Shown here: positions 32,431 through 62,620 of the stretch, in pieces
Layout: each line of letters starts with the position of its first letter
Position numbering within the stretch: the first letter of the stretch is position 1
Sequence record: MK509462
DNA length: 64,000 nt
Direction: 5' to 3' (one strand)
Origin: Shigella phage MK-13
Position numbers and translations under genes: made by a program
The notes under the pieces: generated by a model
Database searches by the model: none
Told to the model about the DNA's origin: nothing
What the model saw: the letters and a program-made list of their open reading frames with translations, nothing else

Positions 32431-32438
32431 CTAAATAT
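32431..32438 (+). promoter_or_regulatory. late-promoter-like motif CTAAATAT
   Basis: Variant of the T4 late promoter TATAAATA, about 40 nt upstream of the gp6-like start. Confidence 0.3.
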
Positions 32439-32477
32439 CTTCAACACCATATTCAAGTTCAGGTGATGGAGATAAAC

Positions 32478-34259
32478 ATGGCCACACAAACAGTTCCTTC
32501 ACTCGATGTCAGGGCTTTCGAGTATCTTATCAAGAAGCGCATGAAAGCTGATCCAACTTTCAAGGATTATGACTTTGAAGGTTCTGGTCTCAGTGCAATC
32601 GTGCGTATCTTGGCCTCGGATGCCAACTCTATCGGGTTCATGCAGAACATGCTGAATGGCGAAAGCCATCTTCACTCTGCCCAACAGCGTTCTAATGTCG
32701 GTCTGGCGGCGGGGTTCTTGTCTTACACCCCTCACAACCACCAGGCGGCGTTCCTGTACGCAAACGTCACAGTCACTCCATATGACGCCAGCACGGCTCC
32801 AGACACGATTGTAATGGACCGCCGGGCGATGTTCATTGGAGCGAAGGATGGCAAATCCTACAACTTCACGGTTGACCAACCTGTGAGCGCCTCTCTTGTA
32901 GACGGCTCTTACAAGTTCGAGAACATCAAACTCGTACAGGGCAACTGGCTGTACAAGTCCTATGACGTGGAAGGCAGCGCGATCTCTACCTATGTGATCC
33001 CATCTTCTTCCGTGGACATCAACCACATGGTGGTGCAGGTGCAGGAATCTGAGACCTCCGACGTGCGGTCTACCTTCTCACGATATGTCAGCCCGTTCGA
33101 TTTGAGCCAGTATGCACAACTCTACTTCGTTGAGCTGGGGTTGGACGGGATGTACACGTTTGAATTCGGCGACGGTTATATCTGCAAGCGAGTAGAAGAC
33201 GGCAACGTCGTGTATCTTCAGTATCTGGAGACCTCTGGTGCAGACGGCAATGACATCACTGCCTTGTCCTCTGCGTCTTCCATCGGGGGCTTCAACCTTG
33301 TAGATGTTGAGCTGGTGTCAGAACGTTCTTCCGGCGGTACAGACCCAGAGAGCATTGAAGACATCAAGCGCCTTGCTCCGCTGGCTTATCAGGCTGAGGG
33401 TGCGGCGGTAGCCGAAGTCGATTATGCTGTGTTGACTGAGCGCCTGTTCTCCAACGTCTCCCGCGCCAAAGCATATGGTGGAGACACGCTATCTCCGCCC
33501 GACTCTGGATACGTTTACATTGCTGTAGTACCTTCTGTTGGTGAGACGCTGTCGGACGCTGAGAAGGCAGATATCGTGGCGACTTTGGACAAGTACAATG
33601 TGGGTACGATTACACCCAAGATTGTCGACGCCGAACTGACTTATGTTGATGTCACCACCCGCGTGTTTTGGGATCCGACTTCCACGGCCTACACCGAAGA
33701 GCAGTTGAAGACAGTCGTAAAGAACGGTGTTGTCAACTGGGGCTTGGGGAACCTGGAAGGATTCGACGAACTGTTCGATAAAGAGCAGTTGCAGTCGGCC
33801 ATCACCGACATGGACAGATCGATAGCGTCAAACATCGCTTCCGTGAAGTACAAGCGCCACTTCAAGCCGGACTATGGGGTACTAGACAGCTTCACGTTCG
33901 ATTATGGGCGCTCGATTGCATCTGGTTCTGTGCGTATCAGTGGGTTTAAGCCGCTTCCGGCCGAGGTCGACTTCACTTACTACATGCGCGATGTCAGTGG
34001 TGTCCTGAATATGTACAAGGTGAGTACAGCAGACACGACCAAAGAATATCTGGTACAAGCTGTTGGAACGGTTGATTATGTGAATGGCGTTGTTGAACTC
34101 CAGCGCATCACAGTATCCAACTACAACACCGAGGGAGTGACTATCATCGTGTCCCCAGACGGTCTTGACCAGAACATTCAGGCCACACAAAACCAGGTGC
34201 TTCGCATCGGTGCTGTAACTGTGGAGCCGGAGGTGCGTTATGTCCAAAGATCTCAATAA
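32478..34259 (+). CDS. baseplate wedge protein (T4 gp6-like)
   Basis: ATG at 32478 with GGAG SD (ORF-track start is GTG); N-terminal FKDYDFEGSGLSAIVRILASD resembles the gp6 N-terminus as recalled. Confidence 0.6.
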   Translation: MATQTVPSLDVRAFEYLIKKRMKADPTFKDYDFEGSGLSAIVRILASDANSIGFMQNMLNGESHLHSAQQRSNVGLAAGFLSYTPHNHQAAFLYANVTVTPYDASTAPDTIVMDRRAMFIGAKDGKSYNFTVDQPVSASLVDGSYKFENIKLVQGNWLYKSYDVEGSAISTYVIPSSSVDINHMVVQVQESETSDVRSTFSRYVSPFDLSQYAQLYFVELGLDGMYTFEFGDGYICKRVEDGNVVYLQYLETSGADGNDITALSSASSIGGFNLVDVELVSERSSGGTDPESIEDIKRLAPLAYQAEGAAVAEVDYAVLTERLFSNVSRAKAYGGDTLSPPDSGYVYIAVVPSVGETLSDAEKADIVATLDKYNVGTITPKIVDAELTYVDVTTRVFWDPTSTAYTEEQLKTVVKNGVVNWGLGNLEGFDELFDKEQLQSAITDMDRSIASNIASVKYKRHFKPDYGVLDSFTFDYGRSIASGSVRISGFKPLPAEVDFTYYMRDVSGVLNMYKVSTADTTKEYLVQAVGTVDYVNGVVELQRITVSNYNTEGVTIIVSPDGLDQNIQATQNQVLRIGAVTVEPEVRYVQRSQ

Positions 34260-35094
34260 CGGACACAATGGGGTGAAATATGAAACCCCATTGTTCTACC
34301 AGAATGAATTCCCAGTGTTCATCGAGTTCATGGACACGTTCTTCAACTGGCTGTATCGCCAGCAGGGATTCACCGAAGAGGAGATTTTGGCGTATCTGGC
34401 AGACACTGATGGTTGGGTGAACCCAAATACGGATCAGTCTCCTATTGAGCAGCTGATTGACATCAAGAAGCGCAAGACACCAGGGACCGAGGCCAAGGAC
34501 TTCTTGGAAGACAAGTTCCTGACGCGCACGTTTGAGAACATGATGGCGCTAGACTTCGAAAATTTGCTGGATGTAGACGGTCGGCCATTAATCTCAATGG
34601 AAGACAAGAACGAACGCATCGACGATTGGTATGCTGATTTTGGATTCCAGAGAACGGTTGATAAGACCTTCCTGGAGTTTGGGAAGTTTGTGCCAGTTGG
34701 TTCGGACAGTTTGGTGACTTCAGACGGAGACACGCTCTCTGTGTATGTCGAGGGAACCAAACGCCGAACGCTGGACCATGTCCGCTGGTTGAAGTTGCTT
34801 AAACACATTTATCGCATTCGCGGGACGAAGAAAGCGATTGAATTGTTCTTCTGGATTTACTTTGGTTGCCCAGTGAGTGTGTACTATCCCAAGGAAGAAA
34901 TTGGTGGTTTGGACGATAACTTTGAATGTGACGGCGCGACAGGAATGCGTGACGATTACTACTATGATGAATTCACGTATGTGATAAGAGTTCCTGGCGA
35001 CGTATCTGATTTTGAAGGTGTGTTTGAGCGCGTCTTCCGTCAGCATTTCCATCCTGCTGGGTTTACTGTATTCCTGGAAAGTTCAAGGAGTTAA
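34240..35094 (+). CDS. baseplate/virion structural protein (284 aa)
   Basis: ATG with GGAGG SD; between the gp6-like and tail-fibre genes. Confidence 0.45.
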   Translation: MSKDLNNGHNGVKYETPLFYQNEFPVFIEFMDTFFNWLYRQQGFTEEEILAYLADTDGWVNPNTDQSPIEQLIDIKKRKTPGTEAKDFLEDKFLTRTFENMMALDFENLLDVDGRPLISMEDKNERIDDWYADFGFQRTVDKTFLEFGKFVPVGSDSLVTSDGDTLSVYVEGTKRRTLDHVRWLKLLKHIYRIRGTKKAIELFFWIYFGCPVSVYYPKEEIGGLDDNFECDGATGMRDDYYYDEFTYVIRVPGDVSDFEGVFERVFRQHFHPAGFTVFLESSRS

Positions 35095-35096
35095 AA

Positions 35097-36308: not shown

Positions 36309-36316
36309 AGTGAAAG

Positions 36317-36324
36317 CTAAATAC
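36317..36324 (+). promoter_or_regulatory. late-promoter-like motif CTAAATAC
   Basis: Lies within the 5' arm of the 36319-36357 hairpin. Confidence 0.35.
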
Positions 36325-36357
36325 CCCTAGATGAAACGAACACATTTAGGGGTATTT
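36319..36357 (+). promoter_or_regulatory. 11-bp-stem hairpin immediately upstream of the tailspike start
   Basis: AAATACCCCTA ...17 nt... TAGGGGTATTT ending 3 nt before the ATG at 36361. Confidence 0.45.
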
Positions 36358-36360
36358 GAA

Positions 36361-39255
36361 ATGGCTAATAAACCAACACAGCCTGTTTTCCCTCTCGGTC
36401 TGGTGGCTGAAGAGCAGTCTACTTTGGCTGGTATCCTCAACACGGGTACGATTGAGCATGGACCAGATGCTGTCCTGACTTTACCCGAGGGTAATGCCAG
36501 TGCAGGTCTCCCGTCTTCTGTTCGCTACAATGCCGACTCCGACGAATTTGAGGGCTTCTACGAAAATGGTGGATGGTTGCCGCTGGGTGGCGGTGGTATC
36601 CGCTGGGAAGCCCTTCCGCATGCCTCTACGGCAACGCTCACTGAAGGGCGAGGCTATCTGGTAGACAACTCCACAGGCGTCTCTACGGTGGTGTTCCCTT
36701 CCCCTACGCGCATTGGCGATTCTGTTACAGTCTGTGACTTGTATGGAAAGTTCTCCCTGTATCCCCTGACCATTGACCCAAATGGTCGCCCAATGTATGG
36801 CTCTGTAGAGCCTATGACGCTCTCCACCGACAGCGTATCTGCGACCTTTACCTGGTCTGGTGACGCGCGTGGCTGGATTGTGACTGCTGGCGTCGGCCTT
36901 GGGCAGGGGCGCGTGTATAGCCGCACGATCTTCACTGAAACCGTTTCGGTAGACACCGCTCAAGTTACTCTGACAACGCAGCCGTCGATTGTTGATGTGT
37001 ATGTTGACGGCAAGCGCCTGCTGGAATCAAAGTATTCCCTCAATGGTTTCAATGTCGACTTCAGTCCATCAATCCCATCAGGTTCCGAGCTGCAGGTCAT
37101 CCAATACGTCCCGATCCAGTTAGGCAATGGCTCCGGTGGTTCCGGCGGCGGTACGGTTATCACTTGGATCTACAATAGTGGATCAGCTGCGGGTGGTGAA
37201 ACCGAGATCGAGTTGGACGTGGATGCCGAAGATGTTTCTGAGATCTTTATCGATGGATCCCGCCAGCAAAAAGGTCTGGGCTTCACTTATGACTCCGTTA
37301 CGAAGATCATCACGCTGGCCGACGAACTCGAAGCTGGTGATGAAGTTGTTGTCGTCATCAATGGCGACCCAACCCTGTACAATCAGATCGACCGTACACC
37401 AAACGAAGTGGCGCGTTCCGTGAACGTGCCGAATTCTCAGGTTATTTTGTCGTCCGATACCATCACCAAACTGGACGGAAAGACGGTTATCTATGATGTG
37501 GTGGCGCAAAAGATTTGGAGCTTACCTTCTGGTATCCCGACAGGTTCTTCTGTTGTATCTGTGAGTGGGAGCACTCTGACATATGCACCAGGGAATGTTG
37601 TTGTTTCTTTGCTCTTGCCGACTTCTGAAAGTTTGGTCGTTTTCCAAGAATTATTAGAGTCTAATGCGGGGGTTGGGTCTATTGGTGGCGTTGCTGTGGA
37701 ATTAGGAGACCGAAACTCGCTAAACTCGAACCAGACCGTGCTCGGGCGTATTGTGGCCAGCAAAACTCTTTCTGGTATTTACAACAAATATTCAGTTGTT
37801 CCCAACACAGGTAAAGTTGCTGACGGTGTGGTATTAATTGACCGCCTGGACGGTAATCAACTTGAAATTCAATTTGAAGACTATATTGATGTTCGCGCTT
37901 TCATGTTCGGCGCAATGACAGATCAGGAAACATTACAGGCAGCATTGGATTATGCGGATAGTGTTTCCGGACATTGCGTAATTGGCATCACACCCAAAAA
38001 CAAAAATGGAGACCCTTGGGTGTTCACGCATCTGCATATTGGTTCTAAAACTATTGTTAAGGGTGCAGGCGGCTGGTTGAAATTCGCAGATAATGTTTGT
38101 AATGATGCGACCAAAGCATATTATCTTGTCGAGAACTTTGATGCACAGGATACCCATTTAATAGATTTGTATATAGACGGAAACCAAGCAAGCAACACAT
38201 TGTATGCTGTAGCCGACATCTTAACGTTCGGTGGGAATCGATGCTCTATCACCAACTGTAAGCTCGTGAATGCCCCCGACTCAGGTCTGATGTTTGCGAC
38301 TACCAAAAACTGCTGGGTGAATGGTCTTTATGTAGAAAACACGCGCGACCTTGGGATCTACTTATCTGCAAGTGTGGCAGGCGGTACTCGTAACTGCGCA
38401 ATGTCCAACCTGGTGTTGCGCGACTGCGCTCAAGGGGCTATGGGTTTCAAACGCTACGTTGCCGACATTGTTGTGGATAATGTTGTAGCCACCAACTGTG
38501 GTAATGGAATCACCTTTGAAGGTTTTGAAGTTGTGACGCCGGGTATGAACCCATCCAATATCACTATGAGCAATATACGTCTGCGTGATATTGGATTTGG
38601 TTATCGGTCTGTTTCAGCGGCAGAGCGAGCTTTAAGTTTCGATTATGCTCGCGGCATCCGTATTAGCAACCTCAGCGTTCAGAACTGTTCTGGTGTCGGT
38701 ATCTTCTTCAGCACTAACACAAGTACTGGTATTTACATTAATGGCGCTAACTTAACTGGATATGCTGCTAACCCACAAATCGCGAGTGGTGTCCCAAACA
38801 ACGATGGTATTCAGTGTAATGGTGCTTCTGGTTTTGAACTGATTAATGTGAACTTGGAAGGGTTCGCAAGATACGCAGCTTGGTTCCTGAGCTGTAGTGG
38901 CGGCAGCGTGGTCGGTGGTCGTTGGACTAATACCCAGGCTAGTGGATATAATGCATACAACGGCGCACGTGTAAATGCAGCCTGTAGTTTCACTAAGTTT
39001 TCGCCTGAGTTTATTAGTGGGGCGAGCGGAACAGACCTAGAATGGTTTAATGGTGCGACTGGAATTACCAAAGACACGATACTGAACAATGCTACTGGCC
39101 CAGCAAAATATGGGTATGTTGTCGTCTCTGGTCCTACGCCTGTGGCTACAGTAACCCCCCGTTTTATTGGGCAGGAAGTCTGGAGTGCAGGTGCGAGTTC
39201 CTGGTGGAAATCACATGGCTTAACCTCCTCAGACTGGAAACAGATGTCAAATTGA
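36361..39255 (+). CDS. tailspike protein (right-handed beta-helix), 964 aa
   Basis: Repeated beta-helix coil motifs (VATNCGNGITFEG, VQNCSGVGIFFST); in the tailspike cluster. Confidence 0.75.
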   Translation: MANKPTQPVFPLGLVAEEQSTLAGILNTGTIEHGPDAVLTLPEGNASAGLPSSVRYNADSDEFEGFYENGGWLPLGGGGIRWEALPHASTATLTEGRGYLVDNSTGVSTVVFPSPTRIGDSVTVCDLYGKFSLYPLTIDPNGRPMYGSVEPMTLSTDSVSATFTWSGDARGWIVTAGVGLGQGRVYSRTIFTETVSVDTAQVTLTTQPSIVDVYVDGKRLLESKYSLNGFNVDFSPSIPSGSELQVIQYVPIQLGNGSGGSGGGTVITWIYNSGSAAGGETEIELDVDAEDVSEIFIDGSRQQKGLGFTYDSVTKIITLADELEAGDEVVVVINGDPTLYNQIDRTPNEVARSVNVPNSQVILSSDTITKLDGKTVIYDVVAQKIWSLPSGIPTGSSVVSVSGSTLTYAPGNVVVSLLLPTSESLVVFQELLESNAGVGSIGGVAVELGDRNSLNSNQTVLGRIVASKTLSGIYNKYSVVPNTGKVADGVVLIDRLDGNQLEIQFEDYIDVRAFMFGAMTDQETLQAALDYADSVSGHCVIGITPKNKNGDPWVFTHLHIGSKTIVKGAGGWLKFADNVCNDATKAYYLVENFDAQDTHLIDLYIDGNQASNTLYAVADILTFGGNRCSITNCKLVNAPDSGLMFATTKNCWVNGLYVENTRDLGIYLSASVAGGTRNCAMSNLVLRDCAQGAMGFKRYVADIVVDNVVATNCGNGITFEGFEVVTPGMNPSNITMSNIRLRDIGFGYRSVSAAERALSFDYARGIRISNLSVQNCSGVGIFFSTNTSTGIYINGANLTGYAANPQIASGVPNNDGIQCNGASGFELINVNLEGFARYAAWFLSCSGGSVVGGRWTNTQASGYNAYNGARVNAACSFTKFSPEFISGASGTDLEWFNGATGITKDTILNNATGPAKYGYVVVSGPTPVATVTPRFIGQEVWSAGASSWWKSHGLTSSDWKQMSN

Positions 39256-39295
39256 TCCGATTCTGTCTAGAGATGTCTAGCAACTTCTATCGATA

Positions 39296-39313
39296 AAGCC
39301 CCTTCAGGGGCTT
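39296..39313 (+). promoter_or_regulatory. GC hairpin GCCCC-ttca-GGGGC
   Basis: Between tailspike genes; near-identical to the 44306-44319 hairpin. Confidence 0.4.
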
Positions 39314-39336
39314 CGTGAGAACAACAGGAGATTCAC

Positions 39337-41439
39337 ATGAATCCGCAATTCAATCAGCCGAAAGGTTCAACGGCCAAAGAAATCAACAAAAACCCGCGTG
39401 AATTATGGCGTCGGACTTTGTCGGAATTGGGTCTTAATTTGGTCGAAGGTAGTTTTGAAGACGGTGCTACTGTGGCGACTGCAACTGACGTCGTGTGGCA
39501 TATCAATGGCGCCCAGTGTTACACCTGGGGTGGGTCTTTACCCAAGACTGTAGACAAAAACTCAACACCGCAATCAACTGGTGGGATATCCGGAGAAGCT
39601 TGGAAGAAATACGATGAAACTTCTCAGGTTACGACACCAGGATACTATGGCGGAACTTGTTTCCCCACGGAAAATAATCTCTCCTTGGCCGTCGGGGATA
39701 TTATCCCGTCAGGAGTAATGTTCGTCAGAATTGATGGTAATCTGATGATGATGAGTTCTTCTCTGACGGAACCCGTGACTGTCACCAGTTTTGATCAGAC
39801 TGTGATCAATGGCTTGCATGAGTTGTATCCAGTATCATTCTTTAACGAAGTGATCACGGGATGGAAGATTGCCCAGAATGACGCACAGCTTACGCGTTTA
39901 CTCCCAAAGGCAGGGAATATTTACATTGGTTATTCTCCAGTGAAAGTTGAAGGAATCTTCATTATTCAGGGAGATATCCGACTCAAGCCATTGCTGCCAA
40001 AAGTAACCGTTGATTCACGTCAGTTCTGGTTGAGATCGCCGCGCGCCTGGAACGAAACAAACCAGGAATATGACTACACCGCGTACGATATTCGTATTGT
40101 CGGTAACTTCCTGTTTGACTTCTATAGGCAAGATGCTTCCTTTGACCCAGGCGTTGGACTAGCTATGCAGTCCGCTGGAACTCTGGAGCTTTCCGGGTGT
40201 GAGTTACAAGGTGCGTGGAGAAGCAACGTAACCATGGATTATGGGCGCTGGTCTATTGCAGACAACTTGTATTCACATGATTGTGGCAGGGGGCAGATTC
40301 AAAATCCAGATGGTAGCAACCGCAATGGTATGGCTATTATTGTTGGTAATGCGACAGAAGCACATATCCATCATATCCGCACCAGAACCACTTGGGCATC
40401 CTCTGTCTTTGTTGATTCTTACCGCCCTGGACGAACGCTTAACGTGATGATCCATGACGTTAGTATTAACGGTTCTGGTGGTAACGGCCTGCGCCTTCAA
40501 TCTGACGATCTTGTTACCGGTGTTGGCGGCGGGCAGGGTACTGCAATTACTCGTGTAAACATCAGCGGCGTAACAATTAAAAACTGTGAATCGCATGGCA
40601 TCCGCGCAAACTTCACCAACGGAAGCGTTACGGGCGTATACATTGAGTCATGTAACGCGGGTATTGCCATTGAGGGTTCTAGTGATGTCACGTATGACAA
40701 CATCACCATCAGGAATTGCTCACAGCCAATCCTCTGTCGATATTATCCGGTAGTCTGCACACGCCTGCGATTTAGTAATATCTTAATATCAGGCCACACA
40801 GATTGGGCTGTGTTCTTTTTGCGTAAGGATGGCTCCTCTCACACGGTAAATCTAGGTGATATTGAATTCGACGGGTTGACAATCCACTGCACACAACCTG
40901 GTTCTAAAGCTGTTATGATTAACTGCGGGTCGAACGCAACAGCTACTTCCGACATCACTATGAAGAACGTGCGTATTGTTGGCGCATTTCCTGATACAGA
41001 CGGAACAGCACTCTGTCAGATTCATAATGCACGACATATTGAAGTAGATAACTGGAACATCAGAGGTGTTAACGGGCTTCCTAGTTCTTATTTGTATGCG
41101 CAAGCATCTCAGAGCTTGAACGTGCATCGCCTGGTTGGCGTTCAACCGTTTGGTACTGTTGATCGTCCTATTGAGTGCGTTGGCGTGGCTGGTCACGTAA
41201 ACATTGTGAATTGTTCTGTTCCTGTAACCACGAACGGAATATTATATACTTCAACTCCTGCATCCCGTTACGAAGAAGGGAACCAGTTTTACAATAGCGC
41301 TCAACCACAACAATTCCCGTTCACCAACGCTGGGCAGTTGCGTGGTGGTGATGTGAACACGTTAACAACCACGCAACTGGCAAACATAGTGGCTACGCTG
41401 ATTAACGATATTAGCCTGGGTAAATTCGTAATCAGATAA
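39337..41439 (+). CDS. tailspike protein, 700 aa
   Basis: N-terminus MNPQFNQPKGS...YTWGGSLPK shared with the 44459 gene; beta-helix-like repeats. Confidence 0.75.
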   Translation: MNPQFNQPKGSTAKEINKNPRELWRRTLSELGLNLVEGSFEDGATVATATDVVWHINGAQCYTWGGSLPKTVDKNSTPQSTGGISGEAWKKYDETSQVTTPGYYGGTCFPTENNLSLAVGDIIPSGVMFVRIDGNLMMMSSSLTEPVTVTSFDQTVINGLHELYPVSFFNEVITGWKIAQNDAQLTRLLPKAGNIYIGYSPVKVEGIFIIQGDIRLKPLLPKVTVDSRQFWLRSPRAWNETNQEYDYTAYDIRIVGNFLFDFYRQDASFDPGVGLAMQSAGTLELSGCELQGAWRSNVTMDYGRWSIADNLYSHDCGRGQIQNPDGSNRNGMAIIVGNATEAHIHHIRTRTTWASSVFVDSYRPGRTLNVMIHDVSINGSGGNGLRLQSDDLVTGVGGGQGTAITRVNISGVTIKNCESHGIRANFTNGSVTGVYIESCNAGIAIEGSSDVTYDNITIRNCSQPILCRYYPVVCTRLRFSNILISGHTDWAVFFLRKDGSSHTVNLGDIEFDGLTIHCTQPGSKAVMINCGSNATATSDITMKNVRIVGAFPDTDGTALCQIHNARHIEVDNWNIRGVNGLPSSYLYAQASQSLNVHRLVGVQPFGTVDRPIECVGVAGHVNIVNCSVPVTTNGILYTSTPASRYEEGNQFYNSAQPQQFPFTNAGQLRGGDVNTLTTTQLANIVATLINDISLGKFVIR

Positions 41440-41473
41440 ATAAGGGTCGCAGGATTAACCCCTTATCCATTCA

Positions 41474-41481
41474 CTAAATAC
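41474..41481 (+). promoter_or_regulatory. late-promoter-like motif CTAAATAC
   Basis: Overlaps the 5' arm of the 41478-41510 hairpin. Confidence 0.35.
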
Positions 41482-41510
41482 CCCATATTGGCAAATCCTC
41501 TATGGGGTAT
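41478..41510 (+). promoter_or_regulatory. 10-bp-stem hairpin sequestering the start region of the next tailspike gene
   Basis: ATACCCCATA ...13 nt... TATGGGGTAT; the 3' arm contains the ATG at 41502 and the SD-like region for the ATG at 41517. Confidence 0.45.
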
Positions 41511-41516
41511 CTTCAA

Positions 41517-44297
41517 ATGTCTAGAAACGTCGAGAGCATCTTTGGAGCGGTTGTAACAGCCCCGCACCAGATTCCATACACTTACACCGCAACGGGTGGA
41601 GAGACGTTTATCTCCCTCCCGTTCTACCCTGTTACAGGCTTCATCACCATCAATGGTGGGGTTCAGGTTCCTGTCGACAACTATGAAATTGATGGTAACA
41701 CTGTGAACCTCGGTCGAGCGCTAGAGGCTGATGATGTAGTGTACTGTCTGTTCGACAAGATCCTGTCCCCAGAAGATTATGAAAACGGGATCCGAATCTA
41801 CAAGTTCCAGGCCGTTGGCAACGAGACCTCATTCACCCCAGACTTCACGACGTATGGTGTGCAATCCCTGTATATCGATGGGAAGTTCCAGGTTCCTGGG
41901 GTTGACTACAATTACAACAGCGCAACTGGTGTGGTGTCATTCCTGAATGGATCTCCGACTGCTGGTGTTTGGGTTGTGGCTGAGATGTCTGTGAAGCAAA
42001 ACTATCTGGCTCTGTCTTCGGAGGGTGGTGCCAGTTTGGTAGGCACGACTTCTGGCAGCACTGTGCAGGAAGAGTTGAACGATGTTGCTGGGCAGCTAGC
42101 CAATTTAGAAGATGATCTTTCTACATTGAAAATTGCAGTGGCCAGTGTTTCCTTTACTCAATTTGGGGCAGTTGGTGACGGCGTGGCTAACGACACGCAC
42201 GCCGTAAAACTGGCGTTCGATTATGCTCTTGCTAATAACGTTGCAGTCGAGCAGCATAGCGGTGTTTTCTTGCTGGATGGCACTGAATACATTGATATCA
42301 GAAACCTGCAAACCGACCTCACCGGATGCGTCCTTAAGCCATCCGCATCATGGACTGGTCAGATTGTGATTTCTCAGACTGGCGCGCCTGTCACTTACGG
42401 TTCTAGTTCTGATGTCGTGACAAAACTTAATACTAACAGTCCAGCCAGCCGCGCCGTTGGAAGTACGATAATGAGCGGGATCGCAACTGATAGCACTTTG
42501 GATGGATGCTACGTCAAAATATCGACTTCTCAGCCAATGTTCGTATTCAGGGACGCTACTTACACAAGGAAAGACCTGAACAGAGTTTATAACCGAGGCA
42601 ACATAGAGAACCCGTTACGCTATGGCCTAGGAACGAATGTTACAGAAGTTATTGCGCTGAAAATTCGCAAAGACGTGCAGACTGTTAAAGGGCTTACTAT
42701 TGATGAAAGCCTGTCGAAAAACTATCGCATTGTGTACATCAACAACGCATCACGCGTTAAGCTTGTCAACACGTCTTTCATCAATGCCCCGATAACGCAG
42801 GATTTCAGTGATACCAGAATTGATATTGCAGGCTCATATGACGTGGAAATTGACGGCCTGTTCACACCGTCTGTGGTCGATTCGTTCAACGGCACTGGTG
42901 ACATCTACTCGTATTCTCTGGGTATAAGCGAGAGCATGAATGTCAGAGTGAAGCATATGACTGCTAACGGTGAAGGATGGGGCGCGACCGGTAGCAACAA
43001 CAGCGCAAACATTACTTTCGAAGAATGCGACTTGAGCAGGATTGACTTTCATATGCCTTTCCAGGGATATTTGCGTGTCAATAAATGCAATGTTGGACGA
43101 TACGGTGTAGTTGTAACTGGCATTGGTGACCTAATCATTGATGATGTCATCTTTAATGGTTCAACTGACCAGCTGGGTTCAATTATCGCCACTCGTCCTG
43201 ACTGCGGCGGGTTCTTCGATGGTGACCTGTATATGTCAAATGTGACTATCGCTGGTCGCCGTTCCGGTCAGATTTCGGCACTAATCCAGGGACCTGCTGA
43301 TGCTGGGCAGGGACCAGCATCAGGATCGCCCATCAACAGCACTCTTTTCAATAAAGTTGTTATTCGCGACCTAAAACTGAAAGACGGATTCTTTGAGCAG
43401 ACTTTTGCCACGCTACTGTATTCCCAGCGTGATTCACAACTACTGTTCCCAAAAGTGGTCGATATTGACGGGCTAAGTTTTGGGGCGCTGCCAAAATCAT
43501 CTGGGGTTGGCCTGAATATCGACTTCTCGCGATTTAAAGCGCTGTTCTCTGATATGACAAACTCAGAGCATCCAGTAACAGGAAGAAAAACGACCGATAT
43601 TATTTTACGTAATATTCAAACACCATATCTGTCGGTAACAGCGGCATCAGCGCGTCATAACCCCTCTATTGTCGCAAGTAACGTGCGTCATGTGATAAGT
43701 GGCGAAGTAGATACGCTGCTGGAGATTAACCAGCGTGGCAGATATTTGTTAGATTCATGCTCACTTGAGCAGTTGAAGCTTTTTTATGGTTCGAACCCCA
43801 ATGGCCTGGTAAGTCTCACAATGCGTGGCGGCAGACTTCAGCAGCCTGTTGCAGCAACCATGCCTATTTCTGGTGAAACCACGCACAGCGTCACCCTAGA
43901 TGGAACGGATATTGTGTGCCAGTTCAACGGGCAAGACTCAACATACCCGATCACCAAAGCAATCATTGCCAGGGCGCTTGTTAAAGACTGTAGATATTGG
44001 GATGTTTCTGGCGCAAGACTAAACAATTTGAGTTTCGTTAAGCCTGAAAGCACTAGCACCACTATAACTGTGACTATGAAGGTTGGTCAAAAATTAGCAG
44101 TGTCTACCGGATACACAGCAGGCAATACTTACACAAGAAGCAACTTTACCGCGTTGTGGGAGTCAGGTGCCAAGCAAGTAGCAAGCATTGGCGCGGCAGG
44201 CAACGTGATTGTCACATATACGGTATCAGGTGATTCGGTTTCACAGATAGTAATGACAAGTCCAGCAAGTAATGAGATCCGCGACGTGTCAATTTAA
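41517..44297 (+). CDS. tailspike protein, about 926 aa
   Basis: Start ambiguous (41502 or 41517); beta-helix-like repeats; N-terminal anchor-like region. Confidence 0.7.
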   Translation: MSRNVESIFGAVVTAPHQIPYTYTATGGETFISLPFYPVTGFITINGGVQVPVDNYEIDGNTVNLGRALEADDVVYCLFDKILSPEDYENGIRIYKFQAVGNETSFTPDFTTYGVQSLYIDGKFQVPGVDYNYNSATGVVSFLNGSPTAGVWVVAEMSVKQNYLALSSEGGASLVGTTSGSTVQEELNDVAGQLANLEDDLSTLKIAVASVSFTQFGAVGDGVANDTHAVKLAFDYALANNVAVEQHSGVFLLDGTEYIDIRNLQTDLTGCVLKPSASWTGQIVISQTGAPVTYGSSSDVVTKLNTNSPASRAVGSTIMSGIATDSTLDGCYVKISTSQPMFVFRDATYTRKDLNRVYNRGNIENPLRYGLGTNVTEVIALKIRKDVQTVKGLTIDESLSKNYRIVYINNASRVKLVNTSFINAPITQDFSDTRIDIAGSYDVEIDGLFTPSVVDSFNGTGDIYSYSLGISESMNVRVKHMTANGEGWGATGSNNSANITFEECDLSRIDFHMPFQGYLRVNKCNVGRYGVVVTGIGDLIIDDVIFNGSTDQLGSIIATRPDCGGFFDGDLYMSNVTIAGRRSGQISALIQGPADAGQGPASGSPINSTLFNKVVIRDLKLKDGFFEQTFATLLYSQRDSQLLFPKVVDIDGLSFGALPKSSGVGLNIDFSRFKALFSDMTNSEHPVTGRKTTDIILRNIQTPYLSVTAASARHNPSIVASNVRHVISGEVDTLLEINQRGRYLLDSCSLEQLKLFYGSNPNGLVSLTMRGGRLQQPVAATMPISGETTHSVTLDGTDIVCQFNGQDSTYPITKAIIARALVKDCRYWDVSGARLNNLSFVKPESTSTTITVTMKVGQKLAVSTGYTAGNTYTRSNFTALWESGAKQVASIGAAGNVIVTYTVSGDSVSQIVMTSPASNEIRDVSI

Positions 44298-44303
44298 AGT
44301 GCT

Positions 44304-44324
44304 TAAGCCCCTTCGGGGGCTTTC
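44304..44324 (+). terminator. rho-independent terminator-like hairpin
   Basis: GCCCC-ttcg-GGGGC followed by TTTCC. Confidence 0.5.
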
Positions 44325-44458
44325 CAATGAGGAACTACACCACCAGTCAACACTAGACATTCTCGAAATTAGACTTCTTGGCGTTTAAACCCAAAATGCA
44401 GAAGAAACGAGTATTATTTGAATTCAATAAACATGACTAAAACAACAGGAGATTCTTT

Positions 44459-46243
44459 ATGAATCCGCAATTTTCACAGCCGAAAGGCTCTGTCTCCAAA
44501 GAGACAAACAAGGACTCCATTGCTCGCAAGTTTGGGTGCAAGAAGTCTGAGGTTCTCTATGCTAAACCAGGTGCTGTCCTGACAGGATACAAGGTGATCT
44601 ACGATAAGGTCACTCAGCGCTCCTATGCACTGCCTTCTAACCTGCCCGCTGGCGCTACCATCACCAGCCTGACAGACGGCATTCTCGTGCACAATACGGG
44701 TACTGTCGATCTGGGTGTTCTCGCAGTGCTTCGGAAGGAATTTGTAACTTTGATCGAAAACTTCGACTCAGGGTTCACAATTCGTGTTAGAAATGAAGTC
44801 GTTTCTGATGGTACAAATCTTTACCGTTGGGGTGGGACTTTACCCAAATCTGTAAACGCTGGTGGCACCATTGCCAATACTGGTGGATTGTCAAGTTCTA
44901 ACTGGGTGAAATTGGATCCAGATGCATTGAGAGATGAGTTATACTCTGGGTTTTATCGTCTAACTGTTATCGACCCTTCGATGTCTCAGTCTCTTATACA
45001 AACTAAATTATCCCAGGGTGGGACATTCCAGTTTCTTCCTGGCAACTATACGGTAACTGGCCAGGCGTTGGCGTTTTATCCTAACTCTGAAATTTATGCG
45101 CATTCCGGCGCTTTATTCTTGGCTGGCGAAAACAACGTTGGTGTACTCACGATTGACCCTTCTCGTTCTGGTGGAAATGCAGTGAGAAACTGCAAATTAC
45201 ACAATATCAGGATATCATTGAATGGTAAAACGGGTTGCGTCGCTTTCAGAGCCAAATATTGGAGGAACCATGGTCATCTAGATATGATGTGGGTAGACAT
45301 GGGGACAGCCATTAATAACGTCGGGATAGAGATAGGGACTTTGTGTTATGGATTGAAGATAGACGGTTGTGAGGTTATCGGTGGTGGGGCTGGTTCGAGT
45401 CGGTTAATAGTACAGAACGGAGCCAATGCTATCGTTATAACAGGATTTGATGGTTATTCCGGTGCTCCGGAAGTGGATATGCCGGATTATGGTATTATCG
45501 TAAGACACTCTACCGACGGCGGGACTTCTTGGGATTATACCACAACATTCCCCACAGAAGCAGTCTGTTTTGTTAACGGATTCAGCCAGAATACCACGAA
45601 GTATGGTTTCTTGGATCAGGCCAAGGGAACTAAGGTGTATGGAATGTATTATGAGAACAATAGTATCTCTGATGTCCGCATCAGTGGTTCTCAAGATGCC
45701 ACATTCCGAGATTGTACACACTCTTCCCCAAGCCAAGGAACCCTCGCGCATGGGTATAGTATAACCAACTCCACCAACAGCTTAATTGATGAGCCGATAT
45801 GGGGAACAAGGGCTGGAGGTTTCTTCGACATTGGTGGTGCACAAGACGCCGGTGTGACTGGCCACATAGTCAACATCGCACGTTGGGGCGCAAGTCGAGG
45901 CATTGATGATCTCGGCGTTGTAACGGCATGTAAATTAAGTCGTGGAAAATTGCCATTACAGCTCACAACTGACTCTGTCGACATAAACAGCGGTTATGGG
46001 TGCTATCGAAGAAACGTTTCTTCTGGTTCCAACATCGCATTTACTGGTACGCCATATGATGGTATGGAGCTGACGTTTTTACTGAGAGGTTCAAACATTG
46101 CTTCATTGAGCATAGCGGGTGTCCCTGTCGATGTGACTGGTGCCAACACCGCCACCACGAAAATGAATCTCGTGAAAATGGTGTATTCAAAAGTAACGAG
46201 CACATGGGTGATCAATGCTGGTCAATGGAATGCTTCCGCTTGA
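44459..46243 (+). CDS. tailspike protein, 594 aa
   Basis: N-terminus MNPQFSQPKGS...YRWGGTLPK shared with the 39337 gene; conserved upstream AACAACAGGAGATTC. Confidence 0.75.
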   Translation: MNPQFSQPKGSVSKETNKDSIARKFGCKKSEVLYAKPGAVLTGYKVIYDKVTQRSYALPSNLPAGATITSLTDGILVHNTGTVDLGVLAVLRKEFVTLIENFDSGFTIRVRNEVVSDGTNLYRWGGTLPKSVNAGGTIANTGGLSSSNWVKLDPDALRDELYSGFYRLTVIDPSMSQSLIQTKLSQGGTFQFLPGNYTVTGQALAFYPNSEIYAHSGALFLAGENNVGVLTIDPSRSGGNAVRNCKLHNIRISLNGKTGCVAFRAKYWRNHGHLDMMWVDMGTAINNVGIEIGTLCYGLKIDGCEVIGGGAGSSRLIVQNGANAIVITGFDGYSGAPEVDMPDYGIIVRHSTDGGTSWDYTTTFPTEAVCFVNGFSQNTTKYGFLDQAKGTKVYGMYYENNSISDVRISGSQDATFRDCTHSSPSQGTLAHGYSITNSTNSLIDEPIWGTRAGGFFDIGGAQDAGVTGHIVNIARWGASRGIDDLGVVTACKLSRGKLPLQLTTDSVDINSGYGCYRRNVSSGSNIAFTGTPYDGMELTFLLRGSNIASLSIAGVPVDVTGANTATTKMNLVKMVYSKVTSTWVINAGQWNASA

Positions 46244-46250
46244 TAGACAA

Positions 46251-46280
46251 AGCCCCTCAGATGAGGGGCTTTTTCTTTCT
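46251..46280 (+). terminator. strong rho-independent terminator
   Basis: AGCCCCTC-agat-GAGGGGCT followed by TTTTTCTTTCT. Confidence 0.65.
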
Positions 46281-46289: not shown

Positions 46290-46318
46290 TTGGCTGTATA
46301 CTAAATATCTCTATAATG
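46290..46318 (+). promoter_or_regulatory. sigma70-like promoter candidate overlapping late-like motif CTAAATAT
   Basis: TTGGCT -17 nt- TATAAT; CTAAATAT at 46301-46308. Confidence 0.35.
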
Positions 46319-52548: not shown

Positions 52549-52572
52549 GGCGGGTTCCCCCGCCCTTCTTTT
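52549..52572. terminator. bidirectional terminator hairpin
   Basis: GGCGGG-ttcc-CCCGCC followed by CTTCTTTT; between convergent genes. Confidence 0.55.
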
Positions 52573-52812: not shown

Positions 52813-52820
52813 CTAAATAC
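52813..52820 (+). promoter_or_regulatory. late-promoter-like motif CTAAATAC
   Basis: 23 nt upstream of the ATG at 52843. Confidence 0.35.
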
Positions 52821-52842
52821 CTTCAAAATTGAGGGTATCGAT

Positions 52843-57089: not shown

Positions 57090-57097
57090 CTAAATAA
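57090..57097 (+). promoter_or_regulatory. late-promoter-like motif CTAAATAA
   Basis: About 40 nt upstream of the tail sheath ATG. Confidence 0.3.
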
Positions 57098-59034: not shown

Positions 59035-59042
59035 TGGAACAT

Positions 59043-59058
59043 GCCCTCTTCGGAGGGC
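59043..59058 (+). terminator. hairpin GCCCTC-ttcg-GAGGGC after the sheath gene
   Basis: GC stem directly after the stop; weak T-tract. Confidence 0.4.
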
Positions 59059-59112
59059 AATTTCATTGAAGGCACTAATTAGAATTGTGTAACTCTTTTT
59101 GGAGAATCTATA

Positions 59113-59646: not shown

Positions 59647-59659
59647 TGTCCTCAGTGCT

Positions 59660-59678: not shown

Positions 59679-59712
59679 TCACTAATTACAAGAAAATGTT
59701 GAGGACTTAATC

Positions 59713-61404: not shown

Positions 61405-61435
61405 TTCGACTAAGTATAGAAAACATTTAGAGGAT

Positions 61436-61609: not shown

Positions 61610-61619
61610 GGAGAGCATC

Positions 61620-61925
61620 ATGGAAATCGAAGAAGTTGCAACATTCGCTGATTTCCTGGCTTCCCGCATGGACGAGCAGAAAGTCATTGACAAGGTGAAT
61701 GCAAAAGGTAAACGCCGCCGTCGCCTGCAGTGCGCTCCTGGTTTCAAATTGTCTGCGGATGGTTCTCGTTGTGAGGTTATGGTCGCCAGTGAGCGCCGTA
61801 CCCGCAAGCTGGGCAACCGCAAGGCAATCCGAGCCAAGAAACGCATGGGTATGGGCTACAGTCGCAAGATTGAGCGTCGTAAGAAGAAAGCGATGAAGTT
61901 CCGCAAAATGATGGGACTGAGTTAA
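61620..61925 (+). CDS. basic prohead core protein (gp68-like by position)
   Basis: 101-aa ORF with highly basic C-terminus (KRRRRLQ..RKKKAMKFRK). Confidence 0.45.
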   Translation: MEIEEVATFADFLASRMDEQKVIDKVNAKGKRRRRLQCAPGFKLSADGSRCEVMVASERRTRKLGNRKAIRAKKRMGMGYSRKIERRKKKAMKFRKMMGLS

Positions 61926-61932
61926 GGAGCGA

Positions 61933-62601
61933 ATGATGAAACTGTTGCGTGAGATCACGGCGATAGGGAAAGACCTCCAAATTGGTGAAAGCACGACCTC
62001 CACCGGGGGTAAGGCTATGTTCATCGAAGGTCCATTCGTGATGTGTAATCAGGTGAACCGTAATGGACGCAACTACGATCTCCAGAAAGTGGGCATACCA
62101 GCTGTCGAAGCATATGACAAAGAGTATGTTCAGGATCGTCGCGCAATCGGTGAACTCAAACATCCCGACTACCCTTTCCCAGATATTGCTGAAGCTGCGC
62201 TGAAGACCGAGAGCCTCCGTTGGGAGGGTACAAACGCAATCGGTCGAGCGCGCGTGCTAAATACACCAAAAGGCCAGATCATTCGTGCTCTGGCTGAAGC
62301 AGACTTCAACTTGGCCGTGTCTACACGTGGCCTTGGTGAGACCAAGTCGGTGAACGGTTATGACGACGTTCAACCTGGCTTTATGCTCACTGCTGTTGAT
62401 GCAGTCGACCGTCCTTCTGGACAAGTTTGTTATGTAAAGGCTGTGAGCGAATCTGTTGAATGGCAGCTTGATGAATCTTCAGGGATTTGGGTTCCTAAAG
62501 ACATCAAAGGGCAAGTCGTCGATTCATTGGTGAAAACCAATATTCAGTTCGAAGACGACTTCCTGCGCCGCCTCGATATCGCATTGAGACATCTGGGCTG
62601 A
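61933..62601 (+). CDS. prohead core protease/scaffold (gp21-like by position)
   Basis: 222-aa ORF with AAGGAG SD, directly upstream of the scaffold gene. Confidence 0.55.
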   Translation: MMKLLREITAIGKDLQIGESTTSTGGKAMFIEGPFVMCNQVNRNGRNYDLQKVGIPAVEAYDKEYVQDRRAIGELKHPDYPFPDIAEAALKTESLRWEGTNAIGRARVLNTPKGQIIRALAEADFNLAVSTRGLGETKSVNGYDDVQPGFMLTAVDAVDRPSGQVCYVKAVSESVEWQLDESSGIWVPKDIKGQVVDSLVKTNIQFEDDFLRRLDIALRHLG

Positions 62602-62612
62602 ATTCAGCCTCA

Positions 62613-62620
62613 CTAAATAC
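62613..62620 (+). promoter_or_regulatory. late-promoter-like motif CTAAATAC
   Basis: 27 nt upstream of the scaffold ATG. Confidence 0.35.

Follow-up and report, generated by a model that had tools for sequence, protein, structure and literature searches.

The heptamer CTAAATA recurs ahead of structural genes in the stretch of 64,000 nt from Shigella phage MK-13 analysed here (the window), and this raises the question of whether it marks the late promoters of a phage lineage, as a sequence-only reading had suggested. The window belongs to an Agtrevirus-like phage of the Ackermannviridae (ViI-like) and shows 94-98% identity to Shigella phage Ag3.

Distribution of CTAAATA

CTAAATA was found 11 times in the window, compared to 3.4 +/- 1.9 copies expected from 100 dinucleotide shuffles, none of which reached 11. 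Ten of the 11 copies are intergenic, with unannotated DNA making up 10.4% of the window (binomial P = 1.5e-9). The same-strand slot 15-50 nt before a CDS start, which covers 1.9% of positions, holds nine of the 11 (P = 2e-14); these nine, all in coding-strand orientation, precede the start codon by 23-42 nt, and every intergenic copy is oriented along the coding strand of its downstream gene. When all 7-mers upstream of starts were scanned without bias, CTAAATA ranked first for the window (Bonferroni 1.8e-9) and again for the complete Ag3 genome (15/19, Bonferroni 8e-16), and TAAATA was the first-ranking upstream 6-mer in Ag3 (29/44). Rather than being equally frequent in coding DNA, the core TAAATA was depleted inside Ag3 genes, on the sense strand (9 vs 17.4 in codon shuffles, P = 0.016) as well as on the antisense strand (4 vs 15.1, with no shuffle that low).

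Boxes and leaders on the plus strand

All seven CTAAATA sites that the sequence-only reading had placed upstream of structural genes were located on the plus strand, and the gaps from motif end to ATG given below agree with the 23-45 nt spacing it had claimed. The box at 32431-32437 lies 40 nt before the ATG (32478) of the baseplate wedge gene gp6 and was invariant in 8 unique orthologous leaders. A hairpin of -13.2 kcal/mol is predicted in this leader (32436-32474); its 5' arm TATCTTCAACACC overlaps the box, its 3' arm GGTGATGGAGATA contains the Shine-Dalgarno (SD) sequence GGAGA, and it disappears for RNA beginning 6 nt past the box. The box at 36317-36323 precedes the ATG (36361) of an Ag3 orf213-like structural protein gene by 37 nt and overlaps a predicted hairpin of 16 bp and -21 kcal/mol (36318-36358, arms TAAATACCCCTAGATG / CATTTAGGGGTATTTG) whose 3' arm contains the SD AGGGG; among relatives its loop is variable and its stem invariant. 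For the tailspike gene, the box (41474-41480) is 36 nt before the ATG (41517), and the predicted hairpin at 41478-41510 (-16.3 kcal/mol, arms ATACCCCATA / TATGGGGTAT) has the SD GGGG in its 3' arm. The gp14 neck protein gene shows the same arrangement, with the box at 52813-52819, 23 nt before the ATG (52843), and a hairpin of -10.2 kcal/mol at 52817-52838 (arms ATACCTTCA / TGAGGGTAT, SD GAGGG in the 3' arm).

The other three leaders fold weakly or lack a strong hairpin. The box at 46301-46307 is preceded by an intrinsic terminator (46249-46272) and lies 34 nt upstream of the ATG (46342) for a 1612-aa structural protein homologous to Ag3 orf206; the structure predicted for this leader is weak (-6 kcal/mol). 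No strong hairpin was predicted in the leader of the gp18 tail sheath gene, where the box at 57090-57096 lies 42 nt before the ATG (57139). In the leader of the gp22 scaffold gene (box 62613-62619, 27 nt before the ATG at 62647), a weak 5-bp stem CTGAA/TTCAG adjoins the SD sequence.

The CTAATTA variants claimed before 59113 and 59713 were also present. One, at 59075-59081, lies 31 nt before the ATG (59113) of the gp19 tail tube gene behind a terminator (59042-59059), and certain relatives carry CTAAATA at this site; the other, at 59682-59688, lies 24 nt before the ATG (59713) of the gp20 portal gene. Several sites were absent from the sequence-only reading, namely three minus-strand copies outside its range, one intragenic copy, one-mismatch variants and TAAATA-core sites. 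On the plus strand, CTAAGTA is found at 61410-61416, 25 nt before hyp190 (61442), a small head-module ORF homologous to Ag3 orf190. Two one-mismatch boxes, CTAAGTA (63564-63570) and CTGAATA (63583-63589), precede the ATG (63611) of the gp23 major capsid gene by 40 and 21 nt, and a terminator-like hairpin with a T-run precedes both. The major capsid gene, which would be expected to be the strongest late gene, has no exact box. The intragenic CTAAATA (62257-62263) falls within the gp21 protease gene and is also conserved in Ag3. It may be an internal promoter or have arisen by chance, a single coding copy being within chance expectation.

Boxes and leaders on the minus strand

On the minus strand, a CTAAATAccccata box at 24345-24351 precedes the Ag3 orf227 homologue (ATG at 24312) by 32 nt and has no hairpin. 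A second CTAAATAccccata box (24445-24451) is followed by a 31-codon ORF without annotation that starts at 24418, and the leader (24421-24451) is predicted to form an 11-bp hairpin of -17.2 kcal/mol in which GGGG is sequestered. The third exact copy, CTAAATA at 28743-28749 (leader 28717-28749), precedes the small ORF hyp220 and lies about 9 nt downstream of an acceptor-end-like GGGAGCACC in the tRNA cluster. A 10-bp hairpin ACCAGTTGTT / AACAATTGGT is predicted over the SD of this leader, and where Ag3, L031 and the window differ in the arms, the changes (G-C to G-U, U-A to U-G) preserve RNA pairing. An ATAAATA variant with the hairpin ATATCCTCAC / GTGAGGATAT (13908-13938) precedes a small membrane protein gene homologous to Ag3 orf248, and TAAATA-core sites were found ahead of minus-strand genes at 4025, 4476, 13932 and 21160.

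Conservation and the Ag3 late genes

Nine genes were tested, and in most of them motif identity was 1.00 over 7-18 unique orthologous leaders. It was 0.94 for gp19, where CTAAATA and CTAATTA alternate, and the gp20 set comprised three sequences only. In the 20 nt upstream of the motif, identity was 0.40-0.73, excepting the three-sequence gp20 set, and no conserved -35 region was detected in the aligned orthologous leaders. CTAAATA also precedes four structural genes in Vibrio phage D507, a distant relative whose gp14 is 40% identical.

In Ag3, the scattered late genes gp4/gp48, gp2/gp54, gp5, gp3 and gp23 each have a box or a one-mismatch variant in a short gap of their own, and where late genes are divergently paired, the 50-53 nt between them hold one box on each strand. 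The C of the box is a preference, since late genes with TTAAATA, ATAAATA and even TATAAATA also occur. Five to seven nt past the box, A is the commonest base (12-15 of 30 Ag3 leaders). Exact or core boxes were also found ahead of genes without known lateness, including UvsW, DNA polymerase and several hypotheticals.

Homologues of the T4 late transcription proteins were identified in Ag3. Ag3 gp55 matches PHROG 234 (E = 7e-52), and a profile of the family matches T4 gp55 (7D7C) with E = 1.4e-7; Ag3 gp33 matches Pfam PF16805 (E = 1e-18), and gp45 is annotated in the Ag3 genome. The three genes are absent from the window and were seen only in Ag3, the 94-98% identical relative.

Leader hairpins

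At 5-6 of the 10 intergenic window sites, a hairpin is predicted whose 5' arm consists of the box with the pyrimidines following it and whose 3' arm holds the SD. Predicted folding energies of six window leaders are -10 to -21 kcal/mol, and the structure is gone if the RNA begins 6 nt after the box. Matched pairs of arm and SD out-bind permuted pairs (window z = -4.5, Ag3 z = -7.2; none of 20,000 permutations as low), and the box lies within the 5' arm in 9 of 30 leaders, compared to 5.9% of position-matched controls (P = 4e-5). The design is also seen in the Ag3 leaders for endolysin and a RuvC-like resolvase.

Other results speak against a hairpin layer. Leaders with and without the motif did not differ in mean stability (-7.65 vs -6.46 kcal/mol, P = 0.41), and SD-sequestering hairpins were about equally frequent in the two groups (9/30 vs 19/71 leaders). 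Ag3 sigma-70-like early promoters are likewise embedded in hairpins. As the stems are invariant in the available relatives, they show no true covariation.

Proposed mechanism and alternative explanations

CTAAATA is very probably a -10-like late promoter element, and roughly half of the exact copies would carry an additional hairpin layer. As a T4-type, gp55-dependent late promoter the box is well supported at the level of sequence, because of its enrichment, position, conservation and variants and because Ag3 encodes gp55, gp33 and gp45 homologues. The lineage-specific consensus proposed earlier gains support from the position and strand bias, the unbiased scans, the conservation, the Ag3 regulon, the machinery, the depletion of TAAATA inside genes, and the lack of both a conserved -35 region and a surplus of sigma-70 promoters. 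Points against it are the missing exact box at the major capsid gene and the boxes ahead of genes not known to be late. Host RNA polymerase core with a phage gp55-family late sigma factor, assisted by the co-activator gp33 and the sliding clamp gp45, would read CTAAATA at -12 to -6 without a -35 element, by analogy with T4 TATAAATA at -13 to -6, and we infer that transcription would start at a purine about 6 nt past the last A of the box. At -12, C is preferred here in place of the A of T4. Each box would head one late transcription unit, and these units cover baseplate, tailspikes, neck, sheath, tube, portal, scaffold and capsid. In the copies with the hairpin layer, the box end and the pyrimidine run (the 'cCcc' extension) would pair with the Shine-Dalgarno sequence. 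Since a promoter is absent from its own transcript, the hairpin and the masked ribosome site would exist only in upstream read-through RNA, and box-initiated RNA, which lacks the 5' arm, would be translatable. Some hairpin leaders, such as that of gp14, sit behind a terminator, so there would be little read-through RNA to regulate, which also counts against the hairpin layer.

The leader hairpins might instead be intrinsic terminators or insulators of upstream transcription, with the box in the 5' arm letting its own RNA escape. We consider this unlikely. In its favour, TAT(TT), the complement of the box, stands at the end of the 3' arms and leaves a short U-rich tail after some stems; GGTATTTTCT tails are seen in the Ag3 leaders of endolysin and orf174, and two Ag3 boxes lie in the loops of clear terminators. 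In a terminator scan (loop <= 8 nt, 5 T in 8 nt), however, the true terminators of the window (46249, 52549 and 59042) were recovered but none of its leader hairpins, and the sequence trailing the window stems is not U-rich. It is highly unlikely that the box is an RNA element, the 5' strand of an operator, processing or stabiliser hairpin, with transcription starting further upstream. Such an element would account for the strong predicted pairing of the box at 5-6 of the 10 intergenic window sites and for a box-to-ATG stretch conserved beyond coding sequence, but 21 of the 30 Ag3 boxes (about two thirds) have no hairpin, the divergent gaps of 50-53 nt must house promoters with one box per strand, and no Rfam family matched. 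The box is moreover the late promoter core of T4 and Aeh1, and the avoidance of TAAATA in genes on both strands better fits a DNA signal.

Promoters read by a factor other than gp55, either host sigma-70 (with a poor -10) or a middle-time phage factor, are very unlikely. Several Ag3 boxes do lie ahead of replication or uncharacterised genes, and the late leader at 46290-46317 contains a 10/12 sigma-70-like match. Against this, TAAATA agrees with TATAAT at 3 of 6 positions and misses the critical final T, the -35 region is unconserved, and sigma-70-like sites are not in excess in the structural region (22 vs 22.7 expected, and 21 vs 18.4). The family has a distinct sigma-70-like motif, TTCAAT-N14-TATAAT, whose copies in the window are confined to the non-structural half. 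An artefact of chance or composition was suggested by the shortness and AT-richness of the box and by intergenic DNA being AT-richer than coding DNA, but it was rejected as practically negligible in probability, given the shuffle counts, the strand and slot bias, and a box unchanged across diverged relatives in which the adjacent intergenic bases vary.

Comparison with known systems

Like the T4 late promoter, the late promoter proposed here is a short AT-rich -10-like box with a TAAATA core and no -35 element, 20-45 nt before virion and morphogenesis genes. The likeness to T4 TATAAATA noted by the sequence-only reading stands, but not its "first-base change", as the altered base is the second of the octamer, at position -12 (numbering and flipped bases according to PMC7892883). 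This base, which is flipped into a deep gp55 pocket, is A in T4 and mostly C here; furthermore, the T at -13 is unconserved here, and the box-to-start stretch is pyrimidine/C-rich, whereas that of T4 is AT-rich. In addition to encoding gp55, gp33 and gp45 homologues, Ag3 shares with T4 the gp55 residues N13, R57, F86 and T99 that line the base pockets. The gp55 homologue is, however, about 80 residues longer and about 22% identical, with Y97 replaced by W and H95 by F.

In T4, the leaders of e, soc, 49 and I-TevI form hairpins that sequester the RBS and carry the late promoter in the 5' strand (PMC3014915), and for these genes the masking of read-through RNA has been demonstrated by experiment. 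T4 gene e resembles the window leaders in having the box in the 5' arm and the SD in the 3' arm, and its leader is also close in sequence to that of window gp14 (TAAATACCTTC...GGAGGTAT in T4 e, TAAATACCTTC...GAGGGTAT in window gp14). In Ag3 the design occurs at the genes for endolysin and a Holliday-junction resolvase, which correspond in function to T4 e and 49. The design is more frequent here, at 5 of 11 sites compared to 1 of 17 in T4 (P = 0.02) with the same script, which recovered the T4 gene e hairpin as a control, and it differs from that of T4 in occurring on core structural genes within the late cluster. By analogy with T4, the hairpins here may control translation; since read-through RNA in the late cluster would itself be late, their purpose would not be simple early-versus-late timing.

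CTAAATA, starting at -12, has also been predicted as the late promoter of Aeromonas phage Aeh1 (Nolan et al. 2006, PMC1524935). Both phages have the same 7-mer with the distinguishing C at -12, upstream of T4 late gene orthologues, and in Aeh1 too it was linked to a divergent gp55. Aeh1 belongs to the Straboviridae, however, and its gp55 is 41% identical to that of T4, with H95 and Y97 kept. The C preference therefore has no obvious residue basis common to the two proteins; it may have arisen independently in Aeh1 and the Ackermannviridae.

The longer form CTAAATAcCcc was reportedly first described by Adriaenssens et al. in 2012 in Arch Virol. The EspM4VN paper (PMC7283392) names two motifs, CTAAATAcCcc and TTCAAT[N14]TATAAT, as signatures of the ViI-like phages (Viunalikevirus, now Ackermannviridae). 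Both signatures are present in the window, and the motif is the same, in the same family, without a difference in sequence. Our search of the literature on Ackermannviridae yielded neither mapped transcript 5' ends nor in vitro transcription, a 2024 review of the family does not mention promoters or transcription, and no paper among those searched ties the 'cCcc' tail to Shine-Dalgarno pairing. The motif itself has already been published, and the novelty is only its frequent placement in hairpins that hide the Shine-Dalgarno sequence.

Gene organization of the window

By megablast, the 32-52 kb region was closest to Shigella phage Ag3 (Ackermannviridae, Agtrevirus); other ViI-like phages ranked next. 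When the whole window was aligned to the Ag3 genome, identities of 94-98% were found in reverse orientation, with the window spanning the ends of the Ag3 record and divergence confined to the receptor-binding parts of the tailspikes. Genes in the window were identified through the Ag3 annotation. The left half (1-32 kb) is coded mostly on the minus strand, with rIIA/rIIB, DNA polymerase, small unknown genes and a cluster of tRNAs. The right half (32.4-64 kb) is taken up by the plus-strand cluster of late morphogenesis genes, in the order gp6, two unknown genes, an orf213-like structural protein, three tailspikes, a 1612-aa orf206 homologue, gp13, gp14, gp15, terminase, sheath, tube, portal, scaffold, protease, gp22 and the beginning of the capsid gene gp23 (63611).

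Four tRNA genes, Ile-GAT, Tyr, Asn and Ser-TGA, were identified by ARAGORN on the minus strand between 27787 and 29019, only two of which reach the Rfam tRNA gathering score, and the Ag3 annotation has Ser(GCT) where the window has Ile(GAT). An Rfam search of the window returned tRNAs only.

Distribution of the CTAAATA box

The heptamer CTAAATA (the box) had been pointed out by a sequence-only reading before at least seven structural gene starts and taken for a late promoter element. It was found 23-42 nt (box end to ATG) before all seven starts given there (32478, 36361, 41517, 46342, 52843, 57139 and 62647), and the CTAATTA variants that had been stated to precede 59113 and 59713, the starts of gp19 and gp20, were also present. 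In the shuffle control, the 11 exact copies of CTAAATA in the window compared with 3.4 +/- 1.9 expected, and none of 100 shuffles reached 11. All 11 copies lie on the strand of the local genes, including three on the minus strand, at 24345, 24445 and 28743, that had not been listed previously. Ten of the 11 are in DNA with no annotated feature, which makes up 10.4% of the window (P = 1.5e-9). Nine are found 15-50 nt before a CDS start on the same strand, where only 1.9% of positions fall (P = 2e-14).

When all 7-mers were ranked in an unbiased way by their enrichment in the region 10-60 nt before starts, CTAAATA came first both in the window (9/11, Bonferroni 1.8e-9) and in the complete Ag3 genome (15/19, Bonferroni 8e-16), where the core TAAATA was also the first-ranked 6-mer (29/44). 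The frequency in coding regions was checked against codon-shuffled genes. Inside Ag3 genes the core was rarer than expected, with 9 occurrences vs 17.4 on the sense strand and 4 vs 15.1 on the antisense strand, and the proposition that the motif is equally frequent inside coding regions therefore clearly fails. Chance as the source of the motif is excluded. In five of the 11 window copies the sequence is CTAAATACC, four of these five being CTAAATACCCC, and the repeated presence in the window of the family signature motif CTAAATAcCcc was confirmed.

The only coding copy (62257-62263) is located in the gp21 protease gene, 383 nt upstream of gp22, and is conserved in Ag3. T4 has internal late promoters, for example in gene 17, and this copy could be functional; a single coding copy is within chance expectation. 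The 14-nt string CTAAATACCCCATA occurs twice on the minus strand (24312-24451), at a spacing of 100 nt. The upstream copy heads a strong hairpin masking the Shine-Dalgarno (SD) sequence and a 31-codon ORF (ATG 24418), which has no annotation in Ag3 and extends into the second box. The region may represent a small late gene so far missed in annotation, or else a tandem promoter.

Conservation among relatives and published precedents

Conservation was analyzed in thirty loci from IMG/VR that contain relatives of gp14 and orf214. For nine leaders, with 3-18 sequences per gene, the box was present in every unique orthologous sequence. Its identity across orthologues was 1.00, except for gp19 (0.94), where CTAAATA and CTAATTA alternate. 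The 20 nt upstream of the box were 0.40-0.73 identical for most genes, below the first 60 coding bases (0.79-0.95); the exception was gp20, for which 0.87 was obtained from three sequences only. In Vibrio phage D507, with a gp14 of only 40% identity, four structural genes are preceded by CTAAATA and gp6 by CTAAGTA. Together with the conservation among orthologues, the boxes of D507 indicate that the C-containing consensus is family-deep. In one relative, the late box before the small ORF named hyp220 follows directly after a tRNA-like 3' end (...CACCA); for the hyp220 box of the window, about 190 nt separate it from the end of the nearest called tRNA upstream.

The motif itself is nothing new, and the window follows the pattern published for ViI-like phages. 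CTAAATAcCcc was reportedly first described in the 2012 Viunalikevirus genus proposal. The EspM4VN paper names 'TTCAAT[N14]TATAAT and CTAAATAcCcc' as the two regulatory motifs of ViI-like phages (PMC7283392), and the earlier Ag3 and CBA120 papers either searched with the T4 late promoter consensus TATAAATA or called the late consensus unknown. Promoters and transcription are nowhere mentioned in the 2024 Ackermannviridae review, and no transcript mapping for the family was found in the Ackermannviridae literature. The late-promoter interpretation of the sequence-only reading, which the sequence evidence indicates to be right, had thus already been anticipated in print.

The sigma-70-like companion motif TTCAAT-N14-TATAAT has six matches with at most one mismatch in the window (first bases 2503, 10780, 18095, 22054, 28708 and 32168) vs 0.22 expected. 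All six begin at 32.2 kb or further left and thus outside the late cluster, and these sites account for the enrichment of the 7-mer AATAAAC upstream of starts. At 46290-46317, a 10/12 sigma-70-like match (TTGGCT-16-TATAAT) overlaps the late box of the orf206 homologue, its TATAAT being 6 nt downstream of CTAAATA.

Relation to the T4 late promoter

CTAAATA is related to TATAAATA, matching ATAAATA at 6/7 bases, and is identical to the Aeromonas phage Aeh1 variant of the T4 late promoter, published by Nolan et al. as a predicted late promoter (PMC1524935). It is most probably the late promoter box of ViI-like phages; the feature is real, was in all likelihood correctly interpreted and belongs, as an ordinary case, to a class already in print. 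The late transcription genes gp55, gp33 and gp45 were not found in the window and are present in Ag3. Ag3 orf122, annotated as the late sigma gp55, matches PHROG 234 'late sigma transcription factor' (E = 7e-52), and a profile of 16 gp55 family members matches T4 gp55 in structure 7D7C (E = 1.4e-7). Ag3 gp55 gave no match in a direct phmmer search of PDB or in a Pfam search. Ag3 orf076 matches the gp33 Pfam family PF16805 (E = 1e-18), and gp45 is annotated in Ag3 with a weak Pfam match (E = 0.0017, below the cut-off).

The T4 octamer occupies positions -13 to -6, and pockets of gp55 take up its flipped adenines of -12, -9 and -8 (PMC7892883, PMC1524935), with A-12 stacked on Y97 (PMC7892883). 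Aligned to this numbering, the C of CTAAATA is position -12, and transcripts are predicted to begin about 6 nt past the last A of the box. The Ackermannviridae gp55 homologues have an invariant W at the T4 Y97 position and F for H95. The replacement of Y97 by W was considered as the cause of C at -12 and rejected, as Aeh1 has the same C preference yet keeps H95 and Y97, showing that the substitution is not a shared determinant.

Genes marked by boxes in the window and in Ag3

According to the Ag3 annotation, the genes behind the window boxes include those for gp6, tailspike, neck, sheath and scaffold, among others. In the whole Ag3 genome, every intergenic exact CTAAATA faces a gene start 23-46 nt away, and late genes dispersed among early ones each carry a box or a near variant within their own short gap. 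The forms in Ag3 are CTAAATA for gp48, TTAAATA for gp4 and gp2, the T4 consensus TATAAATA itself for gp54, CATAAATA for gp5, CAAAATA for gp3, and CTGAATA and CTAAGTA for gp23. The divergent pairs gp4/gp48 and gp2/gp54 are separated by gaps of 50 and 53 nt with one box per strand, so these gaps must contain promoters. In 30 Ag3 leaders the base before TAAATA was C in 15, T in 6, A in 6 and G in 3; furthermore, A is enriched 5-7 nt after the box and occupies the sixth base after it in 15/30, an indirect hint of a transcription start at about this distance. For annotation, a map of late transcription units can be predicted, with promoters before gp6, orf213, one tailspike, orf206, gp14, gp18, gp19, gp20, gp22 and gp23.

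The major capsid gene is the late gene expected to be expressed most strongly. Its leader (63535-63611) has no exact box; it contains two one-mismatch forms, CTAAGTA and CTGAATA, which come after a terminator-like hairpin, and the same is found in Ag3. Outside the window, at 60851 and 66274 of the Ag3 record, two exact CTAAATA copies lie in hairpin loops followed by T-runs (ATCCCCC-TAAATAC-AGGGGGAT-TTCTTTTTC and AAGGGCAC-TAAATACCAC-GTGCCCTT-TATCTTTT). These look like a terminator and a promoter overlapping in one element.

The tailspike region (37600-44400) is mosaic, the largest coverage by any one phage record being 36%; one segment matches the tail fibre gene of G7C, an unrelated podovirus, at 84% identity, and another matches Shigella phage ChubbyThor at 99%. 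A promoter-plus-leader cassette, CTAAATACCCCATATTGG...GGGGTAT, is conserved and joined to different tailspike genes in different phages, and it may move together with the conserved N-terminal anchor module. No box precedes the tailspike genes at 39337 and 44459 in the window (regions 39260-39337 and 44380-44459). The two genes share the leader AACAACAGGAGATTC before the ATG, and the former is preceded by a terminator-like hairpin. Ag3 orf207, the orthologue of the gene at 44459, has an exact CTAAATA, which indicates that the promoter was lost or replaced in the window.

Ackermannviridae phages are widely used for biocontrol and tailspike engineering, applications that benefit from an assignment of promoters to the individual tailspike genes.

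Leader hairpins containing the box

In six window leaders, at least the last three box bases and the pyrimidines that follow form the 5' arm of a strong predicted hairpin, the 3' arm of which is the SD sequence. The predicted MFEs were -21.0 kcal/mol for orf213, -17.2 kcal/mol for the small ORF behind the box at 24445, -16.3 kcal/mol for the 41517 tailspike, -13.2 kcal/mol for gp6, -10.8 kcal/mol for hyp220 and -10.2 kcal/mol for gp14. A seventh hairpin follows an ATAAATA box at 13932. When folding was predicted for RNA started 6 nt past the box, the hairpin structure was gone. As a folding model, the hairpin geometry is solid.

In four T4 genes, e and 49 among them, the ribosome binding site is masked on long transcripts and freed on transcripts from the late promoter (PMC3014915). 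The gene e-type geometry, with the SD paired and the box in the 5' strand, is predicted for the six window leaders. The Ag3 endolysin and RuvC-like resolvase, functional counterparts of T4 e and 49, also have leaders of the promoter-in-hairpin design. The accessible motif papers on the family do not contain the pairing of the box region with the SD.

Matched arm/SD pairing was stronger than that of permuted combinations in the window (-7.7 vs -4.4 kcal/mol, n = 13, z = -4.5) and in Ag3 (n = 30, z = -7.2), and 0 of 20,000 permutations were as low as observed. The masking configuration, in which the SD pairs with the 16 nt at the box and truncation costs at least 6 kcal/mol, was found in 9/30 Ag3 leaders vs 5.9% of position-matched controls (P = 4e-5). 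T4 60-110 kb served as the positive control, and the gene e leader (TAAATACCTTC...GGAGGTAT) was the only match among its 17 TATAAATA sites; the same script gave 5/11 in the window vs 1/17 in T4 (Fisher P = 0.02). At least three pyrimidines in the four bases after the box were present in 8/9 hairpin-bearing leaders vs 9/21 other leaders (P = 0.02), which suggests a mainly anti-SD role for the published 'cCcc' tail.

The motif leaders were not more stable than other leaders (mean MFE -7.65 vs -6.46 kcal/mol, P = 0.41), the truncation effect was on average no larger for them, and SD-masking hairpins were about as frequent in leaders without a box (19/71). The sole feature specific to motif leaders was the placement of the box in the 5' arm. 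Several SD-masking leaders without a box embed a sigma-70-like -10 element instead. In Ag3, the leaders of DNA ligase, orf067, orf160, orf181 and orf182 have sigma-70-like promoters embedded in hairpins, with TATAAT in the loop or the 5' arm, and the 3' arm of the DNA ligase hairpin has the SD. Promoters inside leader hairpins may be a general habit of the phage, beyond late promoters. In the relatives from the 30 IMG/VR loci, orthologous stems were invariant and the loops alone varied, so no covariation was seen; the hyp220 stem had two one-sided changes that keep G-U pairing, too few to count.

Other readings of the box and its hairpins were considered. Recognition of the boxes by sigma-70 is unlikely, because no conserved -35 element was found in the orthologous leaders and consensus scans showed no enrichment of sigma-70 sites in the structural region. 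The pairing with the SD might suggest that the box is purely an RNA element. This is unlikely too, as two thirds of the boxes have no hairpin and the divergent gene pairs need promoters in their 50-nt gaps. Nor is it supported that the leader hairpins are intrinsic terminators, with a GC-rich stem, short loop and T-run, since a terminator scan reported 0/6 of them while it did report the true terminators adjoining the orf206 and gp19 promoters.

Possible function of the embedded promoters

We regard an effect of the hairpins on gene expression as having an even chance at best. Read-through RNA is likely at orf213 and at the 41517 tailspike, judging from the lack of an upstream terminator in the sequence, and unlikely at gp14, which has a putative terminator upstream at 52549. 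As read-through RNA in the late cluster is itself late, the T4 rationale of preventing premature synthesis has no direct application here.

If the embedding is functional, late and sigma-70-like early promoters would lie in the 5' arm of a hairpin masking the ribosome site, and the baseplate, tailspike, neck and many other genes would be translated solely from RNA of their own promoter. Polycistronic read-through RNA would be silent for the hairpin-bearing genes, and the protein output of each gene would be set by the strength of its own promoter, uncoupled from upstream transcription. A device known from four T4 genes would then organise a large share of phage gene expression, and the conserved C-rich tail of the motif would be explained.

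The frequent placement of promoters in hairpins extends a known T4 mechanism modestly and in a way that can be tested. Tentatively, and with more doubt than confidence, we suggest that 'cCcc' may serve as the anti-SD strand and not in promoter recognition, and that the Ackermannviridae may have made the gene e trick a genome-wide rule. In T4 itself the trick is rare, whereas under the embedded-promoter reading it would be found genome-wide in the Ackermannviridae.
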